Positions 2,629 to 26,992 of a stretch of 64,000 nucleotides of DNA are shown here, piece after piece; the first letter of the stretch is position 1; each line of letters opens with the position of its first letter. Both the position numbers and the translations under genes were made by a program. The DNA lies in contig PKTG01000064.1 of NCBI GenBank assembly GCA_002869225.1, forward strand, positions 5,097 through 69,096, read 5' to 3'. The notes beneath the pieces are model-generated. The model made no database searches. It had not been told where the DNA came from and saw only the letters and a program-made list of their open reading frames with translations. The DNA is from Candidatus Muiribacterium halophilum. Its GTDB lineage: Bacteria > Muiribacteriota > Muiribacteriia > Muiribacteriales > Muiribacteriaceae.

Positions 2629-5600
2629 TTATCTTATTACTGCGAATTTTCCTTCTACCTCATGATGATCTGACCCGGACTCTACTTTCACCTTATAGAA
2701 ATAGACTCCATTTGCTACATACCTACCTCTTTTATCAGCAAGATCCCATATCATCGACTGATTAACTCCAGCTGCAGTAGTCCTTGCCCTATATATAAGT
2801 CTTCCAGATACATCATATATCTTCAGACTGACTCTGGAACCGGCAGGTGCGGTAAACCTTATTTCTGCAAAAGATGATGCCGGATTAGGATAAACTGCCA
2901 TTCCTGTAATAAGAGAAGCTGGTGCTATTCTAACTGTTGTCGATCTTTTGAGTTCATTACCCGCAAGATCCACTGCTTTGAAATCTATCTGATGGATACC
3001 AACTGGAAGTGCAAGTCTTCCTTTATGTGGTACTTGTGAAAATTCTTGTCCATCTATCTGAGCAAATACATCTTTAATACTACTTTGATCATCAGCATAT
3101 TCATAAAAGATATTATTACCATCTATTTCCCATCTTTTTTCAATTGGTTTTCCAGTATATCTTGCAACTACATATCTTCCGCTATTTCGTATTTTAAAAC
3201 TTCCATCATAAGATGCAACTGGTGATATAAGCTTATTATCTCTAAGTTTAAATAAAACCGCATTACTATGATCATTCCTTAGCATCACTGGAGAAGTAAG
3301 TTTCTGATTTATTGCAAGATCAAACACCTTATCCACTCTCAGCTGTTTGTTATTTTCTTTAAATGATGCCTCGGATATCACTGCAAATCCATCCTTAACT
3401 ACAGAACCTTTTTTAAATAACATCTGACCCGCGAGAGTATTTACAGCTTTGTCTTTTACTGGTGAAAGTAAAATTGTATTTATTTCCTTTGATACCATCT
3501 GAAGTCTTACTTCATTTGAATCATATATTCCAGCCGTGATTATCGGTGTACCGTCAGATTCTATAGAATAAACTCCACTATATAAATCTGATGTCTTTTT
3601 AAGAGCTCTAATCCTTTCAGGTGTTCCCTGAAACTCTATAGCTTCAAATTTAAGCGTAAGTCCAGTTGAGAGTGGATGTGAAAGTTTAGATACCATAGTA
3701 ATGGTCTTACTATCAGCTGGATTAAGAAAAACTGATAATCCAATACCATAACCAAGATCAAGTACTTTTGTTATTGTATCAACTACATTTCCTCTTTCAT
3801 CACGAACGTTTGATATACTAAGTGTATTTGATGAACTTCCTACAAATTTTTCATAAGGTACATCCACCTTTGCTTCTATTATACCAACTTCAGGATCACT
3901 TGTTGTTGGAAAAGCAAGATTTTTATACGAAACAATACTTGCCTTGACTCCGTTTACATAAACAGCAGGACTTGGATAAAATACATCCATAGTAACATTA
4001 AACGGGATCTTAAGATATATTTCCCAGTTTCCATTTCCATCTGCTTCTATTGACGATACAAGATTATTTATATCAAGTTCAGCGTTTTCAGTTGATACAT
4101 ATAATGAGTTTGTATACTTTTCATCTATTGTCTGAGTGAAAAGATTTATATCATCGATAACTGTCAATTGGAATTGTTTGTTATAAGCAGTATCAGTTGT
4201 TGGAGCATCTAGTACAAAGGAGAACTTGAGAGTCCCATTTTCTTTGACTGAGCTTCCAAAAGTAAGATAAACATAATGATTTAATTCGTCATAATCCAAA
4301 AGTACTTCATTCGCTGCAGGGAAACCTACTGTTATGACATCATAGGAATCTCCAGCAACAGATACTTCAGATGAACCAAAATCTGTATTATTATCAAATT
4401 CTGTTGGGATTTGAAGTCTCAACTTCTTTAATCCTTCATCATTTGAATTAAATTGCATATCAACTGAAACTTCAAATTCCTGATCAGCAGAATTTTTTAG
4501 CATGTAATTTGGAGTTATATAACCTCCTGCTACCGAGATCGCAGCTTTTGAATCTATCTGTAGAGAAAGCGTGGAATTAGTAGCTCCTGCATTACCTTCA
4601 GTTGCTTTTATCTGTCTATCATTTAAAGAATCGGATACATATACTTCAACTTCATTTGTAGTATAAACAGATTTTGAAGATGTATCAGCTGTAAATGCCA
4701 TTATTATCTTATGATTTGGTGCATCAGCAAATACAACTTTGCTGTTTAACAGGAAGGTATATGAGTTTCCACTGACAGAAGTAGTATAATCTGTCGTTGG
4801 TAATATTCCACCTTTAGCGGATAGTGAAGTAATTTCTATATCTGATAGATTTCCAGGTAATTTCACATTTACTTTATCAACACCAGATGAATAATCAAGA
4901 ATTGTTGGTAATATTGTTAGTGTAAACGCCTGATCATCTTTATTTATATAGGTTGTATCAGGATATATCTCGGCAACGGCCTGAGTAGCCGGGGTCGTAA
5001 CACAAGTTACAGTATAACTTTCTGAATCAGCTTCAGAACTTGCCTCACCCTGCTGAGAAGATACTGCAAAATCAAGATTATCAGTAAGCCAATATGCAGC
5101 AGCTTCTTCAAAATGATAATCAGCATACGAAGTAAAATCGACACCAGTATCTGTTGAGGTCGGTGCATTTATCTCCATACTTACCTTTAATGTACTATCA
5201 GCACTTACTGGGGTATCAAGTGATACATAAAGAACATCACTTTCCTCTCTGTAATCAGCAGAAAGTTCTACCTGACCATCATATACCTTTACATTTTGAA
5301 TATTTGAATATGTTGAAGGTATATTTATTGCAAGTAGATTTATGCCACGATTACCCGATGCAAAATCGAGTTTCATATAATAATCAAGAATATTTCCTGT
5401 AGAGTTTACCATGACAAGATTCTCATTATCTCCAGTAAATGATCCGTTAGAACTCTTTATATTAAGTTCGGATACTACAGAAGATACTGAATTTGCAGCG
5501 ATTATATTCATTCCGTTAAAGACTGATGGATTACCGCTTACGTCTCCAGGAGTCGCTTTTTGACTGACAACATCATTTGCAGGAGCTACAGTGTATGCAT

Positions 5601-8600
5601 ATACTTCAAAAGTACCACCACCAGGTGCGTCCTGAACAGTTGGAGTATCTGCTTTGAAAGTTATCTTTACAATATTTCCTGTTGTTGTATCCTTCAAAAC
5701 AGTTCCAAATTTAAGATCAAAATAGTTATTCTGTGTCTGATAATCAATATATACCATGTTTCCAATAGGATTAGTATTAGATGAAATCGAATAATCAGTT
5801 GTATCAACCTCGACCTTAGCACCATCGGCTGATGTGAGTTTTATATCCGAATATGATGTTGGATATACTACCCTTAGGTATTTAACACCTGAATTGTTAG
5901 TGTTGAAATCCAGTTTTGTTGAAATAACAATTTGCTGACCATCTACCGAAGGTCTTACATGAGCAGGATGTATCTCGGCTGTACTAGCCAATGCAGGTGT
6001 CTTAACGACCTCTATGTCCATTGTCTGTGTAGGATGATCTGCAACATATGTATTTCCAGGTGTGAAACTCTGTTTTATATCCGTAGATATCTCACTGTTT
6101 GCAGAATACATCGTAAATGTATATGTATCCTCTGTTGTTGGTGCATCGAATTCAAAAGTCAACACAACCTTTTTATTGACAGGCCAATCAACATCAATAA
6201 GTCTTCCAAATTCAACCTCGAGAGTACCACCTGAAGAAGCTGTCTGAGGTGAATATGTCAATCTAACCTCTTCTGTATCCGGTGCTGCTGAAACAGTTGT
6301 AAATGATATTTCTCCTATTACTAAAGTAGCTGTTGTAGTATCAATATTACTAATTTCATCCGGTATACCAATATAAAGCCTGTCAAAACCAAAGTTTCCA
6401 GTCTGAATAACAGGCGCTGCTGTAATGTAAGCTTTATTATCGGTGGAGCCATAGACAACTGAGTTTGCTTTCTCAACAGCAGGTGGTACATAAAGCTCAC
6501 AAAGTGAAACAGCACTTATTCTACCTGTAGTAACGGTATTATCATCTCCATTTCCTGAAACTCCATCCTGATCTGAATCAACACCTAATTGTGGTGATGT
6601 AGATACTGAATTATCAACATATGCCTTAAAAAGAAGGCCATTATCAAGATTAGAAGGAGGATCGACCATAAACTCGACCCTAAAATCTCTATCTGAATCA
6701 TAAGTTGTACCTGTAAGCAGACTTATTATATTCTCATTTGTATCAATTGACACTTTATATTGACCAGCTGACGGTGTTGAATTTGAAATTACCTGAAGAG
6801 CACTATTTACATAAAGTGCTATCTCATTTGTTTCTGAAAGTACTTTATATGTTGAAGGAAGTTCTATTTTTATTGTATTCACTCCACTATTTGTAGAGCT
6901 GTCAATATCCGCATTAATATAATATTTCAGTTTTGCTGATTCACTTGCTACGACTTTATGTGGTGATATCTCTGAATAGACATTATTAGCTGGTTTCTGG
7001 ATCTTAATCTTCAATGAATCTGTAAGGATCGTAGGATTGTTTGACGGATCCGTATCAGCGTCACCAGCACTGGCTGCAAGTTCACCACCTATATCAGTAT
7101 TTTTTATAAGTGTAGTTATCTCTTCTCCACTTGAGTTTGTATCAGCAGCATCAAGCTTAAATTTCACAGTTATGAGTTTATCGTGATAACTAGTATCTAT
7201 AAGATCACCAAAAGTTAGCTCTGCATATATTGAATTATCATTCTCAACAGCATCAGCAACAAGGACTTCTCCAGCAGAAGGTGCACCTGAAGTCCTTGTA
7301 GCAAGAGTTCCTGTTCCCTCAATCTCTACAGTTGCTCCCTGGAAATTAGAGAAGTTAGTGCCAAAATTAAGATAGATCTTATCCAAACCAAAATTATCTG
7401 AATTTATGTAAGGTTTTAAGGTCATTGTGAATTCAGTAGTCGAATTTCCTGATACAATAAACGGATAGACTTCAGCAGTCATCTGTTCCATGATCTTTCC
7501 TGTCTTAACAGTTAAGACATCAGAATCTCCGCTTGTTCCGTTTGCATCACCAGTTGTGAAATTAACCGGGATGTTTATAGCAGAATTATCCATCGACCCG
7601 GTTATAACTTCGCCTCCACTACCAATGTCAGCAACAGCGGGGGCCTGCATCACATATTTTAAAAGAAAACTTACGTTTCCAGTGTAAACATTTGAGAAAG
7701 TCAATGTTGAAGTATATCCTGATACATCTATTGAATATTGATTGTCATCCACTTCTACTGAGTTTACAAATATCTGCCATTCAGATGTATCCTGTGGAAA
7801 ATAATCATCTGGTAAAGTAAAGGATAATGTATCTACACCGATACTATTTGAATCAGAATACAGAAGTGCATAAAGACTTACTTCAGAGGTTGAGTTGACA
7901 GCATATTGTGTCGGTAAAATCTCAGCGGTCACAGAGTTAACAAGATTAGCAACCGTAACGGAACCATCGTTATCATTTTCTGAATTTCCATCAGCATTTC
8001 CCTCTGTAAGATCTGCTGCTGTCGAAGCTGTATTATATACACTATGTTTTAATATAACATCTATTGTTATATCATCTCCGGATGAACCTGAGACCTGCGC
8101 ATCGTAAACAAATTTGACCTGTTCTCCTGTTATATCATCATCAAGGACTTTACCAATTTTGACCTCGATAGTATCACCCGTGACTGATGCGGTAAACTCA
8201 TCTCCGGATGGAGATGCATCTAATGTGTACTCAGAATTATTCACATAAAACTTTGCAGCTGAAAAATCATGACCAGACATATTTGCAGCATGAAGATATA
8301 TTCTGTCAAATCCTGCATCTGTTGACGAACCAAAATCAGGTATCATCGTAAAAGTAAAAGTAGTATCGTATGCCGGAATTGTCCTTTGAGGCTGAATCTC
8401 ATATACCGCATTTGAAACAACCGTTGCATCGTTTTCAGACATTAGCGGTGCTGCATATACCAGTTTTGATGTCTTACCATCTGTTGTCGTATATCTTAAA
8501 GCAAACGTATAATTATTAGTTGTTGAACCCACGATGTTTACCTCAGCTGATGGTGCCGCTCCAACCTCAGCTTTTGTCCACGAAATTAGCGTTGCTGATG

Positions 8601-10956
8601 ATATGTCACCCTCAACAAAAATAGTATCTTTTTGAATATAATAAAATTGATATGTTGATATCTTGTCATATACATTTACAGGAGAAGAAGGATTATTCCA
8701 CTCAACATGATAATATTCACCATTATCTCCAGGACTATCTATTACAGAAAAAGTAAGTGGTGCCGGATATAACTCGGTATCAAAAGAGAAAGAATAAGTC
8801 GATGCAAGAGCATTCCCGGCAACATCTGTTATGGATGTAGATACATAAACTGTATAATTTGTCTCAAAATCAAGTGTCTGAGATGGTGTCAAAGTCACCT
8901 GTTTAAGATTATCATCATAACTTACCGTTGATGTTATATCAGTTGCTCCCTGTCTTAAATATATGTTTGATGTATTAACAGTGGTTGGGTCAAGCTTTTC
9001 CGAAAAGACTATGGTTATAGTCTTATCTGCCACAACATCTATCTCGGAATCTGCTGGAGAAGTTGATTGTATTGTAGGGGCATCAAGATCTACATCAACA
9101 GTAAAACTTCTCTTAACAGCCGAATCTTTATCAAAATATGTCCCTTTTGTAGCATAGACTCTCCAGTAGTATATGTTTCCATCTGAAAGTATCGCAGCTG
9201 GAAGATCATAACTTACAGTATCTCCATCAGCTGTTGTATGAGTATGTATTATTGAAGAAAAATCACTTGTATCATCTATTTCTATTGTATAACTCTCTTC
9301 ATCACTTCCATTATCTGTCCACGTAAACTGAGGTGTAAGAGTATTTATAGTAGTACCATCAGTTGGTGCAATAAGTGTTACCGGACCTGGTGCCTGAGAA
9401 GACAATGTGAAGTTTGTAGAATCATTTGTACTTCCAGCTGAATTTGTAAGAGTAGCTGTTGCTGTATAACTACCAGCTTCTCTACCAGTTGAATCCCAAT
9501 CATACATATAATTGACAGTACCATCGAAACTAGCAGATAATGATCCTGAATTATATCCACCCGGTCCTGTTATTACAACAGTTCCTGTACTAGCTTCTGA
9601 AGGTGAACTCTCAACAAACCTTACCCTTACAGTATCTTCTATATCAAAAGCAGTCTTTGGTATATTTAAAGTATCCGCTGTGTTTATTGAAGCAAAAATA
9701 GGAGCATTGACCGATGATACCTGTATATCGACAGTCATTGTAGAAGCACTTGCACTAAAGTTTGAAAGTGTCAGATCGGATGAACTTCCTGAGTAATAAT
9801 TACTATTAGGGCTTGAGGCAGGTGAGAATGTTGCTCCAATCACATATAGATCACCAGCTTCACCCTGGTTTCCTCCATTTGTATCGAGTTCATTATTATT
9901 ATCAGCTTCCTCAACATCTACTAATCTATGGGTATCATTGGTGTTTGTGGTAATCGATTCATCAACATGGGTAATCAATATTCCAGTTCCCGGTAAAGCT
10001 GAATCAAAACCAGTTGTCTTATATCTATTTTCTATAAGAAAATATTCCTGGCCACTCACAGCCAGTTTTAATATTGATTCATTCGTAGAAATGGAATTTA
10101 GAGAGTAACCTGTCTGATTAGATGATATTACGGTAGGAGTCAACCAACCCATCTGAATCTTAGACCATCCACAGAAATGTGCAGGTGTTGAACCACTTCC
10201 AAGCCATGTTCCGGCAGACATCATTCCCCATTTTCCTATTCCGTCACTTGAGTAATCAGTATCGTATAGATCAGGAAGATCTCCAAGATCATGTCCCAGT
10301 TCATGAGCAATGACTCCAAGAGCCGATGCTCCGTTTCTTTCCATTTCCGGAACTACTGTACCTTTTGTGATTGTAATACTATCAGCTGTTGATATATTCA
10401 TACCCGACCAGCTCATTGACCATAGATCGTCGGTATTTGATCCATCATCTGTTTCCTGACCATAACCGGCATGAAATACCATATATAGATCAAATTGTGA
10501 ATAATCAAAATCTCCATCTGCTGCTAAAATAGCATCTTCTATTACTTTATACCCATTCGGATCAATATTTGATGGACCACCATCTCCACCATAGGAGGCA
10601 AGTGTTCCAGGCATTGTGTATATAGTTGGACTAACGGTAAACTGTAGTGTACATTTACCATAAGAGTTTTCATTATAATATGAAGCTACATTTGAACAGA
10701 ACGATTCTGCATAGCTTGCTTGCGTATTTGTCATCGATACATCGGTAAATTCAGCTCTTATAACAAGTACCTTTGTTGTACCTATAGGGCTTGGAGCATT
10801 AAGAGCTCTCGGTGCATTTCTCTTCTGAAGAAATTCTTCATAGGAATGATGATCCGCCGCTGGTCCTTTTAAAGGATTCCATGGAGCAGGTGGCACAGCC
10901 ATGGTCGCTATGCTTACAAATAAGATAAGCAGTGCTATGTAAAAGTTTTTTTTCAT
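2629..10956 (-). CDS. giant secreted surface protein: M6 (immune inhibitor A-like) metalloprotease head, Ig-like/SbsA-Ig domains, ~9 repeat modules, T9SS/FlgD-Ig-type C-terminal domain
   Basis: Signal peptide MKKNFYIALLILFVSIATMA (ATG at 10956; the ORF track extends to a TTG at 10977). HEXXH is in VIAHELGHDLGDLPDLYD. The SbsA-Ig-like segment is APTIQSTSPADSEIDV...VAGNAL. Module starts recur as xAEIxP plus GFD(K/R)IY. The tail is VYPNPASSFAEIRF...IYDVSGRLIY...ANGVYFYKV. Confidence 0.85.
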   Translation of the reverse strand: MKKNFYIALLILFVSIATMAVPPAPWNPLKGPAADHHSYEEFLQKRNAPRALNAPSPIGTTKVLVIRAEFTDVSMTNTQASYAESFCSNVASYYNENSYGKCTLQFTVSPTIYTMPGTLASYGGDGGPSNIDPNGYKVIEDAILAADGDFDYSQFDLYMVFHAGYGQETDDGSNTDDLWSMSWSGMNISTADSITITKGTVVPEMERNGASALGVIAHELGHDLGDLPDLYDTDYSSDGIGKWGMMSAGTWLGSGSTPAHFCGWSKIQMGWLTPTVISSNQTGYSLNSISTNESILKLAVSGQEYFLIENRYKTTGFDSALPGTGILITHVDESITTNTNDTHRLVDVEEADNNNELDTNGGNQGEAGDLYVIGATFSPASSPNSNYYSGSSSDLTLSNFSASASTMTVDIQVSSVNAPIFASINTADTLNIPKTAFDIEDTVRVRFVESSPSEASTGTVVITGPGGYNSGSLSASFDGTVNYMYDWDSTGREAGSYTATATLTNSAGSTNDSTNFTLSSQAPGPVTLIAPTDGTTINTLTPQFTWTDNGSDEESYTIEIDDTSDFSSIIHTHTTADGDTVSYDLPAAILSDGNIYYWRVYATKGTYFDKDSAVKRSFTVDVDLDAPTIQSTSPADSEIDVVADKTITIVFSEKLDPTTVNTSNIYLRQGATDITSTVSYDDNLKQVTLTPSQTLDFETNYTVYVSTSITDVAGNALASTYSFSFDTELYPAPLTFSVIDSPGDNGEYYHVEWNNPSSPVNVYDKISTYQFYYIQKDTIFVEGDISSATLISWTKAEVGAAPSAEVNIVGSTTNNYTFALRYTTTDGKTSKLVYAAPLMSENDATVVSNAVYEIQPQRTIPAYDTTFTFTMIPDFGSSTDAGFDRIYLHAANMSGHDFSAAKFYVNNSEYTLDASPSGDEFTASVTGDTIEVKIGKVLDDDITGEQVKFVYDAQVSGSSGDDITIDVILKHSVYNTASTAADLTEGNADGNSENDNDGSVTVANLVNSVTAEILPTQYAVNSTSEVSLYALLYSDSNSIGVDTLSFTLPDDYFPQDTSEWQIFVNSVEVDDNQYSIDVSGYTSTLTFSNVYTGNVSFLLKYVMQAPAVADIGSGGEVITGSMDNSAINIPVNFTTGDANGTSGDSDVLTVKTGKIMEQMTAEVYPFIVSGNSTTEFTMTLKPYINSDNFGLDKIYLNFGTNFSNFQGATVEIEGTGTLATRTSGAPSAGEVLVADAVENDNSIYAELTFGDLIDTSYHDKLITVKFKLDAADTNSSGEEITTLIKNTDIGGELAASAGDADTDPSNNPTILTDSLKIKIQKPANNVYSEISPHKVVASESAKLKYYINADIDSSTNSGVNTIKIELPSTYKVLSETNEIALYVNSALQVISNSTPSAGQYKVSIDTNENIISLLTGTTYDSDRDFRVEFMVDPPSNLDNGLLFKAYVDNSVSTSPQLGVDSDQDGVSGNGDDNTVTTGRISAVSLCELYVPPAVEKANSVVYGSTDNKAYITAAPVIQTGNFGFDRLYIGIPDEISNIDTTTATLVIGEISFTTVSAAPDTEEVRLTYSPQTASSGGTLEVEFGRLIDVDWPVNKKVVLTFEFDAPTTEDTYTFTMYSANSEISTDIKQSFTPGNTYVADHPTQTMDIEVVKTPALASTAEIHPAHVRPSVDGQQIVISTKLDFNTNNSGVKYLRVVYPTSYSDIKLTSADGAKVEVDTTDYSISSNTNPIGNMVYIDYQTQNNYFDLKFGTVLKDTTTGNIVKITFKADTPTVQDAPGGGTFEVYAYTVAPANDVVSQKATPGDVSGNPSVFNGMNIIAANSVSSVVSELNIKSSNGSFTGDNENLVMVNSTGNILDYYMKLDFASGNRGINLLAINIPSTYSNIQNVKVYDGQVELSADYREESDVLYVSLDTPVSADSTLKVSMEINAPTSTDTGVDFTSYADYHFEEAAAYWLTDNLDFAVSSQQGEASSEADSESYTVTCVTTPATQAVAEIYPDTTYINKDDQAFTLTILPTILDYSSGVDKVNVKLPGNLSDIEITSLSAKGGILPTTDYTTSVSGNSYTFLLNSKVVFADAPNHKIIMAFTADTSSKSVYTTNEVEVYVSDSLNDRQIKATEGNAGATNSTLSLQIDSKAAISVAGGYITPNYMLKNSADQEFEVSVDMQFNSNDEGLKKLRLQIPTEFDNNTDFGSSEVSVAGDSYDVITVGFPAANEVLLDYDELNHYVYLTFGSSVKENGTLKFSFVLDAPTTDTAYNKQFQLTVIDDINLFTQTIDEKYTNSLYVSTENAELDINNLVSSIEADGNGNWEIYLKIPFNVTMDVFYPSPAVYVNGVKASIVSYKNLAFPTTSDPEVGIIEAKVDVPYEKFVGSSSNTLSISNVRDERGNVVDTITKVLDLGYGIGLSVFLNPADSKTITMVSKLSHPLSTGLTLKFEAIEFQGTPERIRALKKTSDLYSGVYSIESDGTPIITAGIYDSNEVRLQMVSKEINTILLSPVKDKAVNTLAGQMLFKKGSVVKDGFAVISEASFKENNKQLRVDKVFDLAINQKLTSPVMLRNDHSNAVLFKLRDNKLISPVASYDGSFKIRNSGRYVVARYTGKPIEKRWEIDGNNIFYEYADDQSSIKDVFAQIDGQEFSQVPHKGRLALPVGIHQIDFKAVDLAGNELKRSTTVRIAPASLITGMAVYPNPASSFAEIRFTAPAGSRVSLKIYDVSGRLIYRARTTAAGVNQSMIWDLADKRGRYVANGVYFYKVKVESGSDHHEVEGKFAVIR

Positions 10957-10957
10957 A

Positions 10958-11641
10958 TTAAAGTCCAATATCTCCAAAATTAGATAAATAAGTCGAGCCT
11001 AGATTTGAGACTCCTTTGCTCTCTGCCAGTGCTTTCTGTTCAGCAGCTTTAGTTGTATTACCTTCTGTATAATAAAGAAGTGCAAGAAAAGCATGAGCAT
11101 CTCCATATGTACCAATTCCAAACTCTGAATCATAAGAATAATTTGAATTTACTATAGTTGTTCCCTGTTTTGTCATAGTCTCCATAATAGTTACTGCATC
11201 AGATGTCTTTTCCTGTGCAGAGTAACATGCTGCCAAAAGAAAATATGTGTCATCAGGAACAGGTGTACCATTTGCATTTGATATTATCTGCTCAAAATAT
11301 GCTGATGTGGAACTATCTGTCACCTGTGCTGATTCAAGTTTTATCTGACAGTATTTTATACCTGTCTTAACTATGTTTTTCTGTTCTGGTGTTGGGGAAA
11401 AGTTAGGATCGTTCTCAAGTGCCTGAAGCTCAGTAAGTGCCTGAGAATATGATGATGTAGTACCATTATTTATATAGGTCTTTGCTGAAGATATCTTAGT
11501 GGAGACCGTTGTATCAGTTCCACTTATATTATTTGTTATGTTGCCTGAACCAAAATCATCTCCTCCTCCGCCGCCTCCGCAGCCGATAAGTAGCATCCCT
11601 ATTAAAACTATAAATGATGTTATAAATAATGTCTTTTTCAT
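10958..11641 (-). CDS. lipoprotein, possibly TPR-like, between the two giant genes
   Basis: Signal peptide plus lipobox MLLIGC, followed by a G/D/S/T-rich linker. The stop lies 1 nt from the ATG of the downstream giant gene. Confidence 0.7.
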   Translation of the reverse strand: MKKTLFITSFIVLIGMLLIGCGGGGGGDDFGSGNITNNISGTDTTVSTKISSAKTYINNGTTSSYSQALTELQALENDPNFSPTPEQKNIVKTGIKYCQIKLESAQVTDSSTSAYFEQIISNANGTPVPDDTYFLLAACYSAQEKTSDAVTIMETMTKQGTTIVNSNYSYDSEFGIGTYGDAHAFLALLYYTEGNTTKAAEQKALAESKGVSNLGSTYLSNFGDIGL

Positions 11642-11718
11642 TTTTCCCCCTATCTTAAGACAACTATCTTAGCTTCGTATTCCTGTCCATTTGAAAAGTC
11701 TATTTTCATAAAATAAAC

Positions 11719-14700
11719 TCAATTTGCTACACTCTTTCCTCTTTTATCCAATAGATCCCAGATAAACGATGATGTATTGTTTCTGCTTCTATATATCTTT
11801 CTTCCTGAGACATCGAATATATCAATGTCGAAAGTGCCTGCATATCCTGTCTCAACAAACATAGCATTGCTCACAGGATTAGGATATATCCTAATATTTC
11901 CTGAGAATGCTGGTGCTTTAATAAACAGTGTCTTTCTTGTCGTATTTCCAAGATAATCTACTGCCTCTATATCTATAATCGGACTTTTTGCGATGTTTCC
12001 GAACATTATGGTATCTTCGCTTATATTTAAAATATTACCGCTACCCTTTAATATTCTGGCTTCTTTTATGAAAGAAGCATCATTAAATCCTACTAAAAGT
12101 CTTCCTGTCGTATCAAAATTAGTATTATCATCTATTACAGGAGGAGTACTATCTTCAAAAACAGCTGCAGCAAATATTTTTTCATTTTTTCTGACCATCT
12201 CATAAGGTCTCCAGCCTTTTTCAGTAAGATAGAAAAGTCCATTCCCTTTTACCATATTCTTTATCTCGACTGATGGTGCATGGATCGCCTGATCAAATTC
12301 CACTACCTCATTTTTAAGTGTTAGTTCATTTGATGCTTTTTCAAGACCATTCAGAAGGTTTTTACCAACAGTACATCTTCTGCCTTCACTACTATCATCC
12401 AAATTGAAGAATACTCCGCTTAAGAGCTCATATCTTCCAGGTGCGGAAATGTTGTTCATAGAATACTGCGTATCTGTAAGAATAGTACCTGAACCATCCT
12501 TTATCTTTAAAAATACTGTAAGATCATATGAACTCTTTATTCTGTAATTTCCTGTATAAAGCTTTTTATTTCTAGCCTGTGTCAATGTTATTGATTCATC
12601 TGAAAAACCTGTCTCTCTAACAGAAGCCTCTATTGTATAATTTGAAGGAAGCTCAGATGAGGTGTTTACAATTAGTTTATATAGTTTTGTTTCAGCAGGA
12701 TTCCTAAAGAAAGTAGCCGCCACTCCAGGCGTTACATCAAATGAAAGTATACTGGCATTGACCCAGTTGCCTATATAATCTCGTGCATTTGAACAGCTAA
12801 GGTCTACCTTTCCTGTAAATTCTGTTGCTGATAACCATACATATCCTTCCCATACACCTTTTGAACTTTCATTATAAAAATCAATTGTAGTAGCATTCTT
12901 TTTCTCGACTTTCACAACAGGTGTTGGTCCTTGTATATCCATTGTGGTATTAAAGACAAGCTTTATTGAAAGCTTCCAGTTTCCTGACTGAAGCAGTTCC
13001 GCTACAATTGTTGAAGAACTTTTCTCAACTTCTGCTGAAGCTGTAGAAAGGGATAGAGTATCCCAATCAGTCGAATCTGAATTCGCATCTCCAGCTATGA
13101 CCGTATCATATACACCACTTACATCATCATACAATTTAGCATCAAAATCAAAGACTATATTTGTATTTGGGACATCAGCCGTGAATCTTATATGAATAGT
13201 TGAATCAGAGGTAAGTCTATTTGCTACATTAAATGTAAATACTAGTTTATCGGTTGAAAGTTCATATTTCACCTCGCCTGCTGCCGGTGCTCCGGATACA
13301 GTCGTATATTCTGTACTTCCAACATAAAAATAAGTAGTTGTGCTCGAAAGTCCCGAGAAACCATCCGGAAGAGGTACTTCTACCCTATCCACACCACCTG
13401 CATAGGTAGATATTTTCGCACCTATATAGTAATCAAAGACCTGATCATAAGTACCTTTAACAACATAGGATGGGACTATTTCAGCAATTGCGGAGTCAAC
13501 CGCACTGCTTGTTCTTATAAGGAGTGAATCACTTGGATTTAGCGCAGCAGCATCTCCCTCTACTAAAACTACCTCAACGGTAGAAGAAGAATTTCCAATA
13601 TACCCTGATACCGTCTTCCCATCTGGTATATCACTCGATGTAGGAACATCAGCATCGAAACTTATCTCAATACCTTTTTCAGGATAAAGATTCGTGATAA
13701 GATCCCCCGAAGTTATTATAAATTCATTGTTGTTTATCGAGACATTATATTCGCCGGCTGCAGGATTAGTGGATACTTTAGATAAAGCAGAACCACCCCA
13801 TCTCACAGACTGCATTGTAAGATCAGAATAAGTTGTAGGCATGATGACTTTAAGAATATCAATACCTGAATCCTGTGCTGTTATATCAGGAAGCACATTC
13901 ATAGTAAAGTTCTTGGTCTGACCTTTAAATACGGTTGAAGGAGTTATCTCAGCAAGAGCTCCTCTTGCAGGTACATCTATAACATTAAAAGTAAGTGACC
14001 TTGTCTCTATCTGTGCATAAGCATAACCCTGTGTGGCTGTTAACTCGAAGTAGGAATCACTTCTATAGGTCGTATTATCAACACTTACAGTTGCAACAAG
14101 TCCAGATGATGTCGCACCAGGAGCATCTGCTTTGAAACTGACTTCTATCGGCTGTGGCTCGTCTACTGCAGGAGTAAACTGATAACTTATCTCATTACCA
14201 ATTACACCTATTACAGCTGAACCTGTTACATCCTGGTCGTTTATACTAATAGAAGCACTTGTTCCATCAGGTGCACCAAACGCCGCTGGAAGTTCAACAG
14301 AGACTTTATTTATTCCTCTTTCAGTATTCGAGATAATAGGATAGATAGTAAATGTGAATACATTTGATGTTGATCCAACAATAACACTGTTATCAAGAAA
14401 TCTTATGCCGTTTTCGGAAGCAACCGTACCTTCAGCGACAACAGAAGAAGCTGCAGGTGCACAGACAACGTTAAGAGTGTTAAGACTCATAGAATCATCA
14501 GTTGCATCACCTTCCTGTCCATAAACAGCCAAAGAGTTACTCATATTATCTACATATATCTTAAAATTCTTTCCATCATCTGAAACAGAATTATTTGAGT
14601 AATCTGATACAGATGGCACCTGTGCATAGAAATCTACCGCAAAGTATTCATCAGCTGCGAGATTCTCACTTGAATAATCTGTTATATCACCGGCGGTATC

Positions 14701-17262
14701 TCCATAAAGTTCTCCATATTCTACTATTATAAGATTACCCTGAGCATATATCCTTGCCTGTCCAGCTACCGGACTTGACGCGTATGGGAGAGTCTCTGTC
14801 CCACCAAGTGGATCTGGCACTATCACAGGATTTTCAGATGTATCCACATATGGATTGAGATAAGTCGAAGGCACCTCTATCACCGCTTTATTAAATCCAC
14901 TGTTTACACTTATTATCGTTGGTTTAAAGTATAATCTAAATTTTTTCACTCCATCAAGTGGTTTAAGATGAACCGGTATTATCTCAGCTGAAACTGAGTC
15001 TACAGGTGATTCTTTTGTTATAACACTTATAGTATCTGTAGATTCTATTGCATCAGCATCACCTTCAGTTGTTATAAACGCATCATCAAGATATGTATAG
15101 TCAAGCCAACTTGAAAAATCTACACCTGTATCTGTAGTCATTGGAGCATCCAGTTCAAACCCGATTTGTATTCTTGAATCAGATGGGTTTGAATAATATA
15201 TACGGTTTCCAAGCTTCACTTCCAAAGTAGCTCCAGTTACTCCCTCGGATTTTTCTACATAAGCTTCAAAATCACCAGGTTCGCCAGCAAAGATAGGTGT
15301 ATAGGAATATCCCCCAACATTTATATCAAGTGAGCTTAGATCCATCCCGGAATGTCCAGGACAAGCTATTTTCACATAATTGATACCTATGTCTGTGCTT
15401 TCAAATTCTGGTTTGATCGTATATACGACTTTATTATTTACAGAGCCTGCTTTAACAGCGTTTATAATACTTTCAAAATGATCCTCACCACTTGAATCCT
15501 TTATAGTGAGCTCTGAATATGCTGTCCTTTCTTTTATACTATAACCTGTATAAAGATATAGTGAATTCCCATTTGATGGATTTGAATCAAGATCTTTAGG
15601 CTGGGCTTTAATTGGATGAGTAGCTAAACTATTATCAAAATATATTTCCCATAAACTTCCTTGAGGATAATCAACTGAACTTGAGGATATCATATCAAAA
15701 CTTATATTTATAGGGAAGTTTGTTCCGTTTAAAGCACTGCCACCAAATATAAGAGTTATTACACCTGAACTTTCACTCATCTGAACTTCATCAACTCCTG
15801 GGGTTGTTGACACTACAGTGTATGTTGAGGCGTTTACCTCTACTGTTGCATTGCTAATATCAATTGATGATAATCCATTTGTATCTATTATGATCTTATC
15901 CACACCACTATCCTCTACTCCAGTTGTCATAGATGTATATATACGGACTTCTGTTGTCGAGGATGGTTTGACTACATATGGAGTAAGCTCAGCATACACT
16001 TCCTGAGCCTGTGCTGTCGCAAATACATTAAGAGGATCAGAAATATTATTATTAGTTGGATCACCGTCAACATCCTGAGCAGATACAGTTAAAAGATCAT
16101 CTACATCTCTGTTTCCTGCTTTCATAGCAAATGCATACTCTCCAGAAGTATCCGGCATATCCATGGTAAGTGATATCTCAATAGTACAATTATTATCAAG
16201 TATTTTCTGACCAAGTTCTATCTCTACCGTACCATTTGAGACCGATGGCTGTGAGATATCGACAAGTGCTTGCGTGGAAGTTGGCATACCACTTGTTATT
16301 ATAGTAAAATCAGTAGTCTCATTTTTAACATAACCACTACTACCTGACATCAAAACATTTGAAAATTCTTTAGGTATGGTAAGTACAAATTTATCAATAC
16401 CACAATGCAGACTAGGATTAGACTGTTGAAGAACAATAAATTTAAATTGCACTGTTGATTCTATTCCACCTCTGTATGGCTGTACCTCGGCAGCGACCTG
16501 ACTTGCAGGTGAGCCTGATTTCACTACAAGAGTGTCGTTATTGAGTAAAGGATATCCATCAGCTTCACCATCAGTTACAGCAATTTTTTTCTCAATATTT
16601 GAATTATCTACAAACACATCAAAATGTGATCCTGTTGGAAGATCTGAAGAAGCCGGAGTATCAGTGGTAAATTTTATCATTATGTTCTTTTCCACTGAAT
16701 TATAATTTATTTCAAGTGGAAGTACCACCTCGGCGGTCTCTCCTACAACAGATATGTTTTCATTCAATGTAAGCAGGTTATCTCCTGCATATACAGTCCA
16801 TGAAGCAGTATCAACAGGAGTATATCCTGTTGGGAAATGTATATATATAGTATCAAATCCAACATTTCCATCAGCTATAGTCGGTTTTATATCAAGTACC
16901 ATATCTGTCTCTGTAGATAGTTTTACACATTCAGGATTTATCTCACCTGTTATTGATGCTATCTGATTTTTGACTACGGTAGTAAGAGTATTATCATTAT
17001 AAATATCATCATCTGCATTTCCTGCATTAACTTCCATTGATTTACCAAGATCAGAATCTTCTATCTTTGTTATAAATACTGAAGTCGTATCTAAAGTAGA
17101 AGGCGATATAGCTTTAAAAGTAAACTTTAGACTCTTGGAGTTTATAACAGATGAATCGATATTCTTACCGAGTTCAATCTCAATAGTATCTGAATTAATA
17201 GTAGCATTGAACTGATTTCCTGACGGAGTCGCATCCTGCGTCCACGAAGTTGTATCAACCAT
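11719..17262 (-). CDS. C-terminal 1,847-codon fragment of an interrupted giant surface protein (repeat modules plus truncated T9SS-type tail)
   Basis: Colinear with the C-terminal two-thirds of the 2629..10956 protein. There is no SD before ATG 17262. The frame stays open and homologous on both sides of the flanking stops (see findings). Confidence 0.8.
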   Translation of the reverse strand: MVDTTSWTQDATPSGNQFNATINSDTIEIELGKNIDSSVINSKSLKFTFKAISPSTLDTTSVFITKIEDSDLGKSMEVNAGNADDDIYNDNTLTTVVKNQIASITGEINPECVKLSTETDMVLDIKPTIADGNVGFDTIYIHFPTGYTPVDTASWTVYAGDNLLTLNENISVVGETAEVVLPLEINYNSVEKNIMIKFTTDTPASSDLPTGSHFDVFVDNSNIEKKIAVTDGEADGYPLLNNDTLVVKSGSPASQVAAEVQPYRGGIESTVQFKFIVLQQSNPSLHCGIDKFVLTIPKEFSNVLMSGSSGYVKNETTDFTIITSGMPTSTQALVDISQPSVSNGTVEIELGQKILDNNCTIEISLTMDMPDTSGEYAFAMKAGNRDVDDLLTVSAQDVDGDPTNNNISDPLNVFATAQAQEVYAELTPYVVKPSSTTEVRIYTSMTTGVEDSGVDKIIIDTNGLSSIDISNATVEVNASTYTVVSTTPGVDEVQMSESSGVITLIFGGSALNGTNFPINISFDMISSSSVDYPQGSLWEIYFDNSLATHPIKAQPKDLDSNPSNGNSLYLYTGYSIKERTAYSELTIKDSSGEDHFESIINAVKAGSVNNKVVYTIKPEFESTDIGINYVKIACPGHSGMDLSSLDINVGGYSYTPIFAGEPGDFEAYVEKSEGVTGATLEVKLGNRIYYSNPSDSRIQIGFELDAPMTTDTGVDFSSWLDYTYLDDAFITTEGDADAIESTDTISVITKESPVDSVSAEIIPVHLKPLDGVKKFRLYFKPTIISVNSGFNKAVIEVPSTYLNPYVDTSENPVIVPDPLGGTETLPYASSPVAGQARIYAQGNLIIVEYGELYGDTAGDITDYSSENLAADEYFAVDFYAQVPSVSDYSNNSVSDDGKNFKIYVDNMSNSLAVYGQEGDATDDSMSLNTLNVVCAPAASSVVAEGTVASENGIRFLDNSVIVGSTSNVFTFTIYPIISNTERGINKVSVELPAAFGAPDGTSASISINDQDVTGSAVIGVIGNEISYQFTPAVDEPQPIEVSFKADAPGATSSGLVATVSVDNTTYRSDSYFELTATQGYAYAQIETRSLTFNVIDVPARGALAEITPSTVFKGQTKNFTMNVLPDITAQDSGIDILKVIMPTTYSDLTMQSVRWGGSALSKVSTNPAAGEYNVSINNNEFIITSGDLITNLYPEKGIEISFDADVPTSSDIPDGKTVSGYIGNSSSTVEVVLVEGDAAALNPSDSLLIRTSSAVDSAIAEIVPSYVVKGTYDQVFDYYIGAKISTYAGGVDRVEVPLPDGFSGLSSTTTYFYVGSTEYTTVSGAPAAGEVKYELSTDKLVFTFNVANRLTSDSTIHIRFTADVPNTNIVFDFDAKLYDDVSGVYDTVIAGDANSDSTDWDTLSLSTASAEVEKSSSTIVAELLQSGNWKLSIKLVFNTTMDIQGPTPVVKVEKKNATTIDFYNESSKGVWEGYVWLSATEFTGKVDLSCSNARDYIGNWVNASILSFDVTPGVAATFFRNPAETKLYKLIVNTSSELPSNYTIEASVRETGFSDESITLTQARNKKLYTGNYRIKSSYDLTVFLKIKDGSGTILTDTQYSMNNISAPGRYELLSGVFFNLDDSSEGRRCTVGKNLLNGLEKASNELTLKNEVVEFDQAIHAPSVEIKNMVKGNGLFYLTEKGWRPYEMVRKNEKIFAAAVFEDSTPPVIDDNTNFDTTGRLLVGFNDASFIKEARILKGSGNILNISEDTIMFGNIAKSPIIDIEAVDYLGNTTRKTLFIKAPAFSGNIRIYPNPVSNAMFVETGYAGTFDIDIFDVSGRKIYRSRNNTSSFIWDLLDKRGKSVAN

Positions 17263-17409
17263 TAATGTAGCGGATGATATATCAAGTCCTGTATGATTTT
17301 CAGTACCAATATATATTTTATCAAAACCTACATCAGAAGTTAAAAAAGCAGGTTTTATGTAAAGCGAATAATTAATAAGCGCGCTCTGAGCAACTATAGA
17401 AGGTCTTAT

Positions 17410-19782
17410 CTAAGCAAAAGTAGATGTCTGAGCAATTATTGCATCATCCAATGGCTGCACTGGTCCGTCCTGATAAGAACCGGTTAATTTTGAATGTGTC
17501 AAATACGTTGTCCATGCAACAACCGCTACCATATAATCCTGCTGATCAGTCAATGAATCGATAATGACTTCATCTGAACTTGAATCCACTTCAACATAAG
17601 ATGCGGTTCCCAGATCTGCCTCAAGTATAGAAGCACTTCCCTGTTTATAGTAAACTCTATAGACTGATACGGCTGTCTCAGTTAAAAGATCATAACTTAC
17701 CTTTATCTTACCACCTGTATCCTTTGGAAAATCTATTGCCTCAACATTTGTAACTGCTGGAAGTACCTCTGTTGTAAAACTAAACTGATACTGTGTTTGC
17801 AATGGATTATTTGCCTTATCATCCACATCTGTGGTTATTGTCACTCTGTGCTCTATTCCATATTTCAGATCAGCAGATGGTTGTATCTTTATAATAGAAT
17901 TCCCACCTGAATAAGAATAAGATACTGTAGAAGCTACCGAAGACCAGCTTCCAGAGACATATTCCTCTATTATTACAGAAGATCCATCTACTGTAGTCGC
18001 ATCTAGTTCCTCGTTCATTGTTATCTCAATATCATTACTTACACTAATCTCAGTCTCACCAGTATCAGGTGAAGTAGAGACTACGTTAGGACCTGTTATA
18101 TCTGAAGTCAAAGATCTTATTGTAGCTGAATCAGGATCTTTGTTTCCTTCTGAGTCCTCAGCATAGACACGCCAATAATAAGTAGTTCCCTCAACAAGTG
18201 GTGCAGCACCCGGTAGATTATAAGATGTCACATCAGGTCCCAATGTATCAGTGTCATGTAAAGATGAAAATGAGTTATTATCATCTATCTCAAAAATATA
18301 ATGTGCTTCATCTGAATTTAGGTCCTGCCAGGCAAACGCAGGTGTAGTAGTATTTAGCTTAGCACCATCAGCTGGAGTCTGCAGTACGACTACTCCAGGT
18401 GCAGCGGAATCAATAGTTATTGTAAGCGAATTATCAGTTGCAGGATTTCCCGCTTGATCCTCAAGTCTAAAGGTAATAACATAATCATTTGCTGAACTAA
18501 CACCTGATATATTCCAAAGGTAATAATATACACCAGCTCCTTCATAAGACAGATTATATGTAGAATCAAATCCTGTTGTCGTTGATTTTATATTAACTGT
18601 TCTTGTAGTATATTCGTTTGTAGTAGCCTCCTGAAGATTAAGTCTTACAACAGGAACGGATGAGGAACCATAAATCTCATCATTATCCGTTGGATCAGCA
18701 TTATCCCATGAATCTACTGATACAATAGCAGGACCTTGAGTATCCACTGTGATCGTTCTGTATACTCCGGTCGTCTCGGATGGTCTATGAGGTCCTTCGT
18801 GTCCAACACCGTCTTTACCATAAACCTGCCAGTAGTATGTACCATCTGAGATTGATGATGAAAGTGTTATTGTATTTGTACTTCCATCTCCGGTTGACTG
18901 TGTCCTTACTATATTATTAAAATTCGCATCAGATGCGATTTCCAGAACATAGTCAGTCTCATCAGAGCCAATATCTGACCATGAAAAAGTTGGAGTATTA
19001 TCAGATGTAGTAGTACTATCAGCTGGGGATACCAAGGATACAGCTGTGACATCAGAGTTATCAGAAGTTATTTGAGGATACGCGTTTCTTTCATTTCCAC
19101 CATTATCCAGTACTCTTATAGTAACCTGTTTAAGTCCATCTGATACATTTCCACCTGTAAGATTCCAGGTAGCAGTACCGCCACTAAAAGTATCACATTC
19201 AACATCTGTATCACCAGCATTTCCCGTAATAAGGTGCACATCTGCTGTTATATTTGATTTCTGGATATTATTTGTATAATTATCACTAACATCGCAGGTT
19301 AAAGTTATAGAATCTCCCTGAGTAAAATAGTTTCCATGTGTTGCTGAAAGAAGAGACTCGTTGCTTATTGTTGGATTTGTCTTATCTATCTTGACCTGGA
19401 GAGACTGTGGAGAATTTGAAGAACCTGATATACTTACCGTTATTGTATAAGTAGTCTCATTAAAAGGTGAAATCAAAATAGTATTATTATTTATATAAGT
19501 GCCTGCATTGATCTCATAATAGCCATCCTGTGGACTTCCATCAGCTAATGTGCCCTCGGTAGGGTCAGGAAATCCTGGAGGAGCTGGAGAAACAGTTATA
19601 GTACCTGTCGAACCCTGATTCGATGAATCATATATCTGAACATAAATCGAATCGACTGAATCACCGTATACCTCATCGTTATCAGAAGTATCACTTGTAT
19701 TCCATGTATCCAGGGTTATAGCTCCCATTGATAAAATCGAGAAAATAAATAGAAATGATGTTAATAATATTTTTTTATACAT
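17410..19782 (-). CDS. N-terminal 790-codon fragment of the same interrupted giant surface protein (signal peptide, Ig/FN3-like and SbsA-Ig-like domains)
   Basis: Signal peptide MYKKILLTSFLFIFSILSMGA. Repeated TPxFxWxD..SDE..Y..EI......F ... YYWRVY domains also occur in the paralogue. It ends at a TAG in frame with the next ORF. Confidence 0.8.
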   Translation of the reverse strand: MYKKILLTSFLFIFSILSMGAITLDTWNTSDTSDNDEVYGDSVDSIYVQIYDSSNQGSTGTITVSPAPPGFPDPTEGTLADGSPQDGYYEINAGTYINNNTILISPFNETTYTITVSISGSSNSPQSLQVKIDKTNPTISNESLLSATHGNYFTQGDSITLTCDVSDNYTNNIQKSNITADVHLITGNAGDTDVECDTFSGGTATWNLTGGNVSDGLKQVTIRVLDNGGNERNAYPQITSDNSDVTAVSLVSPADSTTTSDNTPTFSWSDIGSDETDYVLEIASDANFNNIVRTQSTGDGSTNTITLSSSISDGTYYWQVYGKDGVGHEGPHRPSETTGVYRTITVDTQGPAIVSVDSWDNADPTDNDEIYGSSSVPVVRLNLQEATTNEYTTRTVNIKSTTTGFDSTYNLSYEGAGVYYYLWNISGVSSANDYVITFRLEDQAGNPATDNSLTITIDSAAPGVVVLQTPADGAKLNTTTPAFAWQDLNSDEAHYIFEIDDNNSFSSLHDTDTLGPDVTSYNLPGAAPLVEGTTYYWRVYAEDSEGNKDPDSATIRSLTSDITGPNVVSTSPDTGETEISVSNDIEITMNEELDATTVDGSSVIIEEYVSGSWSSVASTVSYSYSGGNSIIKIQPSADLKYGIEHRVTITTDVDDKANNPLQTQYQFSFTTEVLPAVTNVEAIDFPKDTGGKIKVSYDLLTETAVSVYRVYYKQGSASILEADLGTASYVEVDSSSDEVIIDSLTDQQDYMVAVVAWTTYLTHSKLTGSYQDGPVQPLDDAIIAQTSTFA

Positions 19783-19797
19783 ATGTCAGGCACTCCA

Positions 19798-19830
19798 GAA
19801 TACCGTTTTATAGTCTATTTATCGGTATTC
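19798..19830 (-). promoter_or_regulatory. 5'-leader hairpin just upstream of the SD (GGAG) and ATG of the giant gene
   Basis: GAATACCG (19798-19805) pairs with CGGTATTC (19823-19830), with a 17-nt loop. An adjacent 10-nt palindrome AGAATATTCT lies at 19835-19844. Function not established. Confidence 0.25.
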
Positions 19831-19915
19831 AGGCAGAATATTCTTATTTTACAGGTTCAGGTTTTACCGGTCGCCAGTTCGTTTCCTGCTGCTGACAATT
19901 ACTCAAAGGTTAAAT

Positions 19916-24829: not shown

Positions 24830-26992
24830 TTATTCTCCTAACAGGTCTTTGATCTCATCATCTGAAAGAATATCATCTCTTTTTATAGCTTCTTCTACCT
24901 TATCTTCAGAATCCTCACCTATCATTTCCTTAAGTTGATCATCTGTCATCATAACAGTTTCATCTATTTCCTGATTTATAAGGTTTGTAGCTTCTTTGAT
25001 TGCTTCATCTATATCATCATCTTCTTCTAAATCAGTTTGTGGTTCTGATTCCTCATCACCAGACTCCTGACTCGCGACTTCAGACTCATCCTGTTGCATT
25101 TCTTCACTTACTTGAGCTGCTTCCTCAAGAAGTTTGTTCATCTCATCTATCTCAGCCTGCTTTTCAGGGGTTATTTCTTCTACCGATTCCTCTGCCTCAG
25201 GTTCTTCTGCTTCAGGTTCCTCTGCTTCAGGTTCTTCTGCTTCAGGTTCCTCTGCTTCTGGTTCCTCTGCTTCAGGTTCCTCTGTTTCAGGTTCCTCTGT
25301 TTCTGGTTCCTCTGCTTCTGGTTCCTCTGCTTCAGGTTCCTCTGCTTCAGGTTCTTCTGCTTCAGGTTCCTCTGCTTCAGGTTCCTCTGCTTCTGGTTCC
25401 TCTTCCTCAGGTTCTTCTGCTTCAGGTTCCTCTGCTTCAGGTTCCTCTGTTTCTGGTTCTTCTGCTTCAGGTTCTTCTGCTTCAGGTTCTAGACTTTGTT
25501 CTTCAGATTCTTCAGTCTCTGTCGAAGTATCGGGTTCTTTCGGCTCTTCATCAGTTTCTTCAGATTCTTCAATACTTTCCGAATCTACCCATGGAGTGGG
25601 TTCCTCATCAGATAACAACTGATTTACAGAAAGAGCAAATATTTCATCAGAATGTTTCGAAATAAAACAGATATCACTTTTATCAGCAAATTTATCTTTT
25701 AGATCATTCACATCTTTTTCAAGTTCTTTATAGCTATTTATTTCCGTTTCTTGATCGATATTCCTACAAACTATTTTAAGAAAAAGTTTCTTATCCGGAA
25801 TTTCCTTTATAGAACTTGATTCAAGAAAATCCCCTACTTTAGTCTCAAAGTCGATTATTATATTACGACATATCTCTGAAATATCAAATGCGCTTGTTAT
25901 TCCCAGAAAGATACTGTCAGTTACATGGGCAAGATAAAATTCAGGATCCTTTTCATACGCGATATTAAATATCGTCTGTGTAACAAACCCCATTATATTC
26001 TCACCATATGATGCTCCATATTTATGAATATAATCATCCTGATTTTTCACATAAAAATAGGCTATCTGAGCCCCTTCTTCCTGTTTTATAACAGAATCGA
26101 CTTTTTCTGCTATTGAAGCAGATGTGGGAAGTCCGGTAGAAGGATGTGCTAACCTGTCCTCAAGTCTTGATGCCCATAGAAAATCAATCATATTATTAAA
26201 ATTCAGGACAAACTCGCCAAATTCATCATTTCTGTAATATCTTACTTTTTGTTTAAACCTACCTCTTGTTATGTTTCTGGCAACTGAAATAAAGTTTTTA
26301 AGTGGTTTGCTTATATAGTGAAAATAGAAAAATATTGTCATAAAAAGATGGATGATAGCTAAAATCGCTGTCCCAACGATTATCTTCTTGACCATATAAT
26401 AATTTGCATTAAGAATATTTGATACATCATAGAAAAATACCGTGACAAATGACACCTGACCGGCTTTTCTTCCAGCAGGTGAAATAATACGTATTATACC
26501 ATCAGAAAGTTCATTGTTTTTCATAAAATCTTCATATAATTCTATATAATGTTCTTTGTCTTTCTGATCGTCTTTAATTGCTATCTGTTCTCTTAAAAGA
26601 TAATCTGCAGGTTTTATATCAGATGTATATTTAATCTCCTGTGGAAGAACAAAAAATTCAGGCTTAAGATCATTTTTATATCTGCTTATGATCTTATCCA
26701 TACTTCTATTAAATACTACCATAGCCTTAATATTAGCATCCTGTTGAAACATCCTGTTAAAATAAGCTCGAAAATCCTCTGTAGGAATATCTCCTTTAAG
26801 CAATGTTATGGCTAGTTGATTTTTTTCGGATATCTTTTCTTTAAAACTATCGTAAACAATACCTCGCTGAATAGAAAAAACCATATATGCGACTAGTGAA
26901 GTGAATAATAATAGAAATAATATAGTTAAAGTCAAATGTGGGACAAATAACGGTCTATATTTTTTATTTTTTATCTTCCTGCTTAATTTCAA
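24830..26992 (-). CDS. membrane signalling protein: N-terminal TM/sensor region, HAMP domain, degenerate GGDEF-like domain, acidic (PEAEE)n tail
   Basis: HAMP pattern KPLKNFISVARNITRGRF...NDEFGEFVLNFNNMIDFL. GGDEF-fold pattern HPSTGLPTSASI...YFYVKNQDDYIHKYGASYGENIMGF, with VTDSIF in place of GGDEF. Confidence 0.65.
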   Translation of the reverse strand: MKLSRKIKNKKYRPLFVPHLTLTILFLLLFTSLVAYMVFSIQRGIVYDSFKEKISEKNQLAITLLKGDIPTEDFRAYFNRMFQQDANIKAMVVFNRSMDKIISRYKNDLKPEFFVLPQEIKYTSDIKPADYLLREQIAIKDDQKDKEHYIELYEDFMKNNELSDGIIRIISPAGRKAGQVSFVTVFFYDVSNILNANYYMVKKIIVGTAILAIIHLFMTIFFYFHYISKPLKNFISVARNITRGRFKQKVRYYRNDEFGEFVLNFNNMIDFLWASRLEDRLAHPSTGLPTSASIAEKVDSVIKQEEGAQIAYFYVKNQDDYIHKYGASYGENIMGFVTQTIFNIAYEKDPEFYLAHVTDSIFLGITSAFDISEICRNIIIDFETKVGDFLESSSIKEIPDKKLFLKIVCRNIDQETEINSYKELEKDVNDLKDKFADKSDICFISKHSDEIFALSVNQLLSDEEPTPWVDSESIEESEETDEEPKEPDTSTETEESEEQSLEPEAEEPEAEEPETEEPEAEEPEAEEPEEEEPEAEEPEAEEPEAEEPEAEEPEAEEPEAEEPETEEPETEEPEAEEPEAEEPEAEEPEAEEPEAEEPEAEESVEEITPEKQAEIDEMNKLLEEAAQVSEEMQQDESEVASQESGDEESEPQTDLEEDDDIDEAIKEATNLINQEIDETVMMTDDQLKEMIGEDSEDKVEEAIKRDDILSDDEIKDLLGE
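25186..25485. repeat. 20 tandem copies of a 15-bp unit (plus strand GTTCCTCTGCTTCAG), encoding (EEPEA)n inside the 24830..26992 CDS
   Basis: Counted unit by unit. Only a few single-base variants occur (T/C, giving E/T/A changes). Confidence 0.9.

Follow-up and report, generated by a model that had tools for sequence, protein, structure and literature searches.

An in-frame TAG private to one assembly divides a giant adhesin-like gene of Candidatus Muiribacterium halophilum

On contig PKTG01000064.1 of the metagenome-assembled genome (MAG) of Candidatus Muiribacterium halophilum (GCA_002869225.1), two long open reading frames (ORFs) of 790 and 1,847 amino acids (aa) follow each other in the same frame, with a TAG between them. 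Does this TAG separate two genes, is it decoded so that translation continues, or does it break a gene that is otherwise whole? The question was raised by a preliminary description of a 64-kb stretch of the contig (positions 5,097 to 69,096), which we refer to as the window. It proposed a single gene with a nonsense codon and offered three origins for that codon: a very recent pseudogene, a base-call or population variant, or a read-through or recoded site. We find that the two ORFs are pieces of one gene of 2,710 codons and that the TAG is a plain G>T substitution, GAG (Glu) to TAG, private to this assembly. Coordinates are those of the window, and all genes discussed here lie on its minus strand.

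One coding unit across the TAG

The whole gene, which we call gene A, spans 11650..19782 and reads as 2,710 codons in a single frame with two internal stops, as established from its translation, its match to other assemblies and its Pfam and NCBIfam matches. The 790-aa ORF (17410..19782) reads ...QTSTFA-TAG at its end, and the TAG (17410..17412) is codon 791 of the gene; its first base on the coding strand, 17412, is T in the window. From 17409 the frame is open again down to 11722, a run of 1,896 codons that contains the first ATG (17262) of the second ORF and then meets a TGA at 11719-11721. Between the TAG and that ATG lie 49 "orphan" codons (17263..17409), which translate as IRPSIVAQSALINYSLYIKPAFLTSDVGFDKIYIGTENHTGLDISSATL. 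The preliminary description had stated that they contain neither a stop nor an ATG, GTG or TTG, and that no Shine-Dalgarno sequence precedes the ATG. Our codon check agrees on the first point, and on the second we found no Shine-Dalgarno-like purine run upstream of ATG 17262; where the start of a neighboring gene is secure, it is mostly preceded by GGAG, GAGAGG or GGGGG.

The orphan codons encode the first strands of a repeat module. We iterated a hidden Markov model (HMM) on the two giant proteins of the window, those of gene A and of its paralogue, gene B. This gave nine tandem immunoglobulin (Ig)-like modules of ~150 aa in gene A (13063..17412, residues 790-2240), with the opening AE(I/V/L)xP ... 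G(F/I/V)(D/N)K, and nine in gene B (4057-8445), in keeping with the earlier count of about 17 copies besides the one at the junction. The first module of gene A covers residues 790-930, within which the orphan codons fall, and the TAG is its second residue. At this position Glu is found in 12 of the 13 modules with the xIxP opening motif. Since 10 of these 12 Glu codons are GAG, a single G>T yields TAG, the one-step change that had been proposed.

We compared the window with five further assemblies of the same population: ERZ794998 and ERZ794999 from ENA, SRR5894287 and SRR5894289 from Logan, and JGI 3300007102. Their identity to the window is 99.75-99.9%, and the 515-aa neighbor protein and other window proteins are found there exactly. 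Base 17412 is G (codon GAG, Glu) in all four of the other assemblies that cover the site and T in the window only. In the four assemblies other than that of JGI, gene A is called undivided, at 2,710 aa, and these intact proteins differ from the fused window translation at 5-6 residues. In one of them, P0141, which reads ...TSTFAEIRPS..., the differences are only at residues 791 (a stop in the window, E in P0141), 1199, 1258, 2252 and 2688 (a stop in the window, G in P0141).

A scan of GTDB species genomes gave one distant orthologous locus, L001, on a 16-kb contig of a Candidatus Muiribacteriota MAG. This locus (1-16129) corresponds to window 2629-22258 with the same gene order: the 515-aa gene (48% identity), a cNMP/TPR gene (47%), giant A, a 224-aa gene (39%) and the start of giant B (40%). 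Here giant A is one 2,687-aa ORF. It reads KAEITP where the window has FA-TAG-IRP and IADGTYIY where the window has VAN-TGA-VYFM, with Glu and Gly at the stop positions, and its end, ...RVAVLK before the terminator, is level with ...VVLR in the window. Upstream of the TAG, 41.3% of residues are identical to the window protein, and downstream of it 40.0%; the value reaches 53% over the 49 orphan codons, the most conserved segment of gene A among those compared with L001. A single ORF in L001 and a similar identity on both sides of the TAG argue that, across a long evolutionary distance, gene A has been a single coding unit from end to end.

Within the window, gene B (2629..10956, 2,775 aa) offers the same comparison. 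It has an M6 peptidase domain, a Big_5 domain, its nine modules and a type IX secretion system (T9SS) sorting domain, it is intact, and it is called at 2,775 aa in other assemblies too. The preliminary description had held it to be colinear with gene A through the junction, and it is, at 30% identity (E = 1e-58). The alignments of orthologue and paralogue that it had called for gave one ORF, the opposite of a two-gene pattern, with the homology of the module kept.

The GenBank record has gene A as two genes, PLX18317.1 (790 aa, C0601_04685) and PLX18316.1 (1,847 aa, C0601_04680). Since these are byte-identical to the window ORFs, both stops are part of the record as deposited and do not stem from a later step. 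Exact database look-ups of the 790-aa ORF, the 1,847-aa ORF, gene B, a 984-aa ORF and a 179-aa ORF returned no record; the first two are present in the cluster table as NCBI proteins, and the last three were missed because of window-private amino acid or nonsense changes. Could the annotation be right, so that the functional state is two proteins, one of 790 aa and one of 1,847 aa with its own start? We regard this as next to impossible. The annotation does present them so, but a second gene would have to begin after 49 conserved codons that hold no start, at an ATG without a Shine-Dalgarno sequence, and its product would lack a signal peptide and end in an incomplete sorting domain, whereas the non-JGI assemblies and the orthologue have a single ORF. 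The earlier proposal of one gene carrying a nonsense codon thus holds.

Stop codons in gene A and in the window

Gene A contains a second in-frame stop, the TGA at 11719..11721, which is codon 2688 and falls on the Gly of ...KRGKSVAN-G-VYF... in the T9SS sorting domain. The preliminary description made no mention of it. The C-terminus in the window reads KRGKSVAN-TGA-VYFMKIDFSNGQEYEAKIVVLR-TAG, and its counterpart in gene B is KRGRYVANGVYFYKVKV.... Beyond the TGA, the 22-codon tail of the sorting domain and the natural TAG terminator occupy 11650..11718, with the terminator at 11650-11652, level with the end of the orthologue. Codon 2688 is GGA in four assemblies and TGA only in the window and in JGI 3300007102 (base 11721, G versus T). 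The cost to the domain can be read from the TIGR04183 profile, which scores the intact C-terminus at 36 bits over profile positions 1-71 of 72 (cut-off, 23) and the window allele at 23.1 bits over positions 1-42 only. With TIGR04183/PF18962 at its extreme C-terminus, the intact allele bears the mark of a T9SS type A cargo. The JGI assembly (locus L004) privately carries yet another stop, GGA>TGA at 14950-14952, codon 1611 of gene A, which leaves pieces of 1,610 and 1,076 aa. The distinct nonsense alleles of gene A therefore number three, across these two assemblies.

Since a TGA stands on a conserved Gly, we considered genetic code 25, in which TGA encodes Gly, and rejected it: TGA ends many ORFs of the window normally, in ATGA overlaps or ahead of a Shine-Dalgarno sequence and start, and four assemblies have GGA at this codon.

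Programmed read-through or recoding would have the TAG of codon 791 decoded, for example by a suppressor tRNA, and the full-length protein made. In its favor, the TAG lies within a frame that is open and conserved to either side, and it falls on a conserved residue. However, the TAG is missing from the four covering assemblies and from the L001 orthologue, and by this lack of conservation the explanation is effectively refuted. TAG is also a working terminator here: it is the natural end of gene A itself, at a conserved C-terminus, and it ends a FliK-like gene 14 nt before flgD. Elsewhere in the window, genes end normally at TGA, TAA and TAG, and the junctions show Shine-Dalgarno sequences or ATGA overlaps; a second, different stop, the TGA, breaks gene A too. 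Furthermore, the 64-kb window contains no tRNA gene and gave no match to an Rfam family, and folding of the 141 nt that surround and follow the TAG was no more favorable than that of shuffled sequences (z = 0.10). Read-through of the TAG is thus highly improbable. The three options of the preliminary description are thereby reduced to the other two, a base-call or population variant and a very recent pseudogene.

Private substitutions and the origin of the T

Private substitutions were taken from a pile-up of all fetched loci on the window, over the 53.5 kb (1-53550) covered by at least two other assemblies. There are 40 of them, and the TAG is one. G:C>T:A changes account for 24 of the 40, compared to 7 of the 48 singletons seen in other assemblies (Fisher p = 1.3e-5). 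Each of the 24 lies in a 5'-YC context, for which 58% would be expected (p = 2e-6); the same context recurs at the shared TGA (11721) and at two JGI-private changes. Genes contain 22 of these private G:C>T:A changes, which comprise 16 nonsynonymous, 3 nonsense and 3 synonymous ones; random G:C>T:A on the same genes is expected to give 77.6%, 13.6% and 8.7%, respectively. The remaining 16 private changes are different (Fisher p = 8e-4): 5 are nonsynonymous and 11 synonymous, as would be the case for ordinary polymorphism. As for the variants common to several assemblies, 11 of 22 are transitions, and those typed in a 14.5-kb comparison are mostly synonymous and at the third codon position.

Other genes were hit in the same way. 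A private GAA>TAA (32791..32793) cuts a HEAT-repeat/zinc-ribbon protein, 1,389 aa long in other assemblies, into 984 and 403 aa, and a private TCA>TAA (47231..47233) truncates motB, leaving a 179-aa ORF in the window in place of a 283-aa MotB. Gene A holds 3 of the 24 private G:C>T:A changes and makes up 15% of the compared length, which amounts to an even spread. Of the five different nonsense alleles observed, three are likewise in gene A; we considered an excess of nonsense alleles in this gene, and the sample is too small for such a claim.

A predominance of G:C>T:A is the signature of 8-oxoguanine, as left by mutators deficient in MutY or MutM or by an oxidative library artefact. On the basis of the private spectrum, its context and its coding effects, we therefore group the TAG with changes of the oxidized-guanine type. 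It belongs to a class that looks like unfiltered damage or mutagenesis, not like a designed signal. The data show directly that there is one gene, that the TAG is private and what the substitution spectrum is; the chemistry of the change and its presence in the cells, as opposed to the library only, are what we infer from them.

We lean slightly toward a real mutation over a library or consensus error. On this account, which we put a little above even, the TAG is a very young mutation in the sub-population captured by the MAG, and this allele of gene A is a very recent null, a pseudogene. If the T is present in the cells, translation would stop at residue 790. The resulting fragment would keep the putative signal peptide and lack the sorting domain. 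The 1,896 codons beyond the TAG would be silent, since they lack a signal peptide and a Shine-Dalgarno sequence and offer no start within the first 49 codons. Gene A would then have been struck twice in this lineage, once at codon 791 (TAG) and once within the sorting domain (TGA). Such an allele would have to be very young, because in a genome of 34% G+C the 1,896 codons are still open. The TGA at 11719-11721 speaks for mutation, being common to the JGI assembly, which has its own further G>T stop at 14950-14952; the shared TGA together with that stop suggests stepwise decay. In addition, the consensus of a 120-kb contig normally reflects the majority of reads.

Several points weigh against a mutation in the cells. 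G:C>T:A in this context is also a classic 8-oxoguanine library artefact. The window has ~4.5e-4 such changes per base, with nonsense codons in motB and in the gene for the 1,389-aa HEAT-repeat protein, a heavy load for a living lineage, and one that only a mutator or strong oxidative stress would explain. Finally, the window and the JGI assembly might come from the same reads, in which case the argument from the shared TGA is weaker.

The competing explanation is that 8-oxoguanine, formed in the sample or during library preparation, was read as T in the MAG consensus. Gene A would then be intact and its split in GenBank wrong. We consider this a serious contender, somewhat short of even. It would account for a set of window-private substitutions in which 60% are G:C>T:A, all in a single context and with an exactly neutral mix of synonymous, nonsynonymous and nonsense effects, and likewise for the breakage of motB and the HEAT-repeat gene, both intact elsewhere. 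Private changes of other types, by comparison, are mostly synonymous (11 of 16), like true polymorphisms, and the TAG is in no other assembly. What such an artefact explains less well is how the T came to be in the consensus: damage errors are independent from molecule to molecule and unlikely to win at normal coverage, and a change of the same type, the TGA at 11721, is common to another assembly that itself has changes of its own.

The preference for a real mutation can be taken one step further, on a more tentative footing. Possibly the G>T changes arose within the cells of a sub-lineage that hypermutates, either because its repair of 8-oxoguanine is deficient or because oxidants stressed it in an enrichment, although we would not favor this over its alternatives. 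The MAG is said to come from a perchlorate-reducing enrichment. If there was such a hypermutator, gene A would first have lost its secretion signal, by the TGA that two assemblies share, and would later have been struck independently in two sub-lineages, at codon 791 here and by the TGA at codon 1611 in the JGI assembly. A natural mutator and the stepwise decay of a gene would then have been caught in metagenomes.

The finding itself is ordinary, and its practical value is a warning about this MAG, be it about its quality or about its mutational state; we take the MAG to be the reference genome of Candidatus Muirbacterium halophilum. In the window there is roughly one private, apparently unselected G:C>T:A per 2 kb, and no fewer than three genes are split or truncated here but whole in other assemblies: those for the giant adhesin, MotB and the 1,389-aa HEAT-repeat protein. 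Annotations, pseudogene counts and recoding searches built on this record would mislead.

Two side observations concern other genes. Mismatches of the other assemblies cluster at window 25200-25500, in the acidic (EEPEA)n repeat of a HAMP-domain protein (minus strand, gene 24830..26992); this clustered disagreement is probably a repeat collapse or mis-assembly and not point variation. Compared with the tryptophanyl-tRNA synthetase (TrpRS) of the window (28379-29389), the protein that NCBI names as tryptophan--tRNA ligase of Ca. Muirbacterium halophilum (P0024) shows an identity of only 64%; it could be a paralogue or come from a second MAG of the same name.

The gene product and known systems

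Gene A begins with a signal-peptide-like segment, MYKKILLTSFLFIFSILSMGAIT (19714..19782), picked out by eye from the translation. Its N-terminus, MYKKILLTSFLFIFSILSMGA, is hydrophobic on the same reading and is a putative Sec signal peptide. Ig, Fn3 and Big_5 domains come next, followed by the nine repeat modules, a unique C-terminal region and the T9SS type A sorting domain. Over the first 790 residues, Pfam matched Big_5, Big_13 and fn3-like domains; no Pfam model matched the ~150-aa module. An AlphaFold model of one module, built with an alignment of the 18 modules, has a predicted local distance difference test score (pLDDT) of 93.2 and is a beta-sandwich with the AE(I/V)xP motif in its first strand. 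In a Foldseek search, the best PDB matches of the modeled module were Ig-like domains of the Gram-positive pilins and adhesins Sgo0707, RrgB, BcpA and Cna (TM score ~0.5, E ~2e-5). Searched against 1.84 billion proteins, the module profile found 266 representative ones, including many giants of 2,000-6,600 aa. A homologue query spanning the junction gave only generic Ig/Fn3 matches at no more than 37% identity, and metagenome scans with the alignment and with a single protein gave no match.

Judged by its domains, gene A probably encodes a giant adhesin-like surface protein, a T9SS cargo that forms a tandem pair with the product of gene B. A 227-aa gene (10958..11641) lies between the two giants and is syntenic in the distant MAG. 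The locus adds a tandem pair of giant proteins predicted to be T9SS sorted, an uncatalogued Ig-like module, and synteny kept across Muiribacteriota.

How does this locus compare with systems already known? With amber-codon recoding, as in the use of TAG for pyrrolysine or its reassignment in some phages, and with programmed read-through, the only likeness is an in-frame TAG inside a conserved ORF. Unlike in those systems, the TAG here is unconserved and is a working terminator, and neither machinery nor a stimulatory signal was found in the window. Another parallel is the nonsense alleles and "split genes" of draft MAGs that bear the 8-oxoguanine signature. Here too, GAG, GAA, GGA and TCA became stops by single-base G>T (G:C>T:A) changes, with selection unseen. 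What sets this case apart from the general signature is the strict 5'-YC context (24 of 24).

As for the protein, the closest structures to the predicted module are the CnaA/CnaB-type Ig-like domains of pilins and MSCRAMM adhesins (Sgo0707, RrgB, BcpA and Cna), which also form tandem, stalk-like arrays; in contrast to them, the module has a sequence identity of 9-16% and occurs without an LPXTG motif or sortase context. In architecture, gene A resembles the giant T9SS type A cargo adhesins of Bacteroidota and the wider Fibrobacterota-Chlorobiota-Bacteroidota (FCB) group, such as those like SprB, which likewise have an N-terminal signal peptide (putative in gene A), Ig-like beta-sandwich repeats that run in tandem over kilobases, and a TIGR04183/PF18962 domain at the very C-terminus. 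It differs from them in its host, a Muiribacteriota MAG, and in its ~150-aa module, which is without a Pfam model and was found in 266 representative proteins only. It differs also in that the copy in this record is broken by two stops, one of which costs the last strands of the sorting domain.

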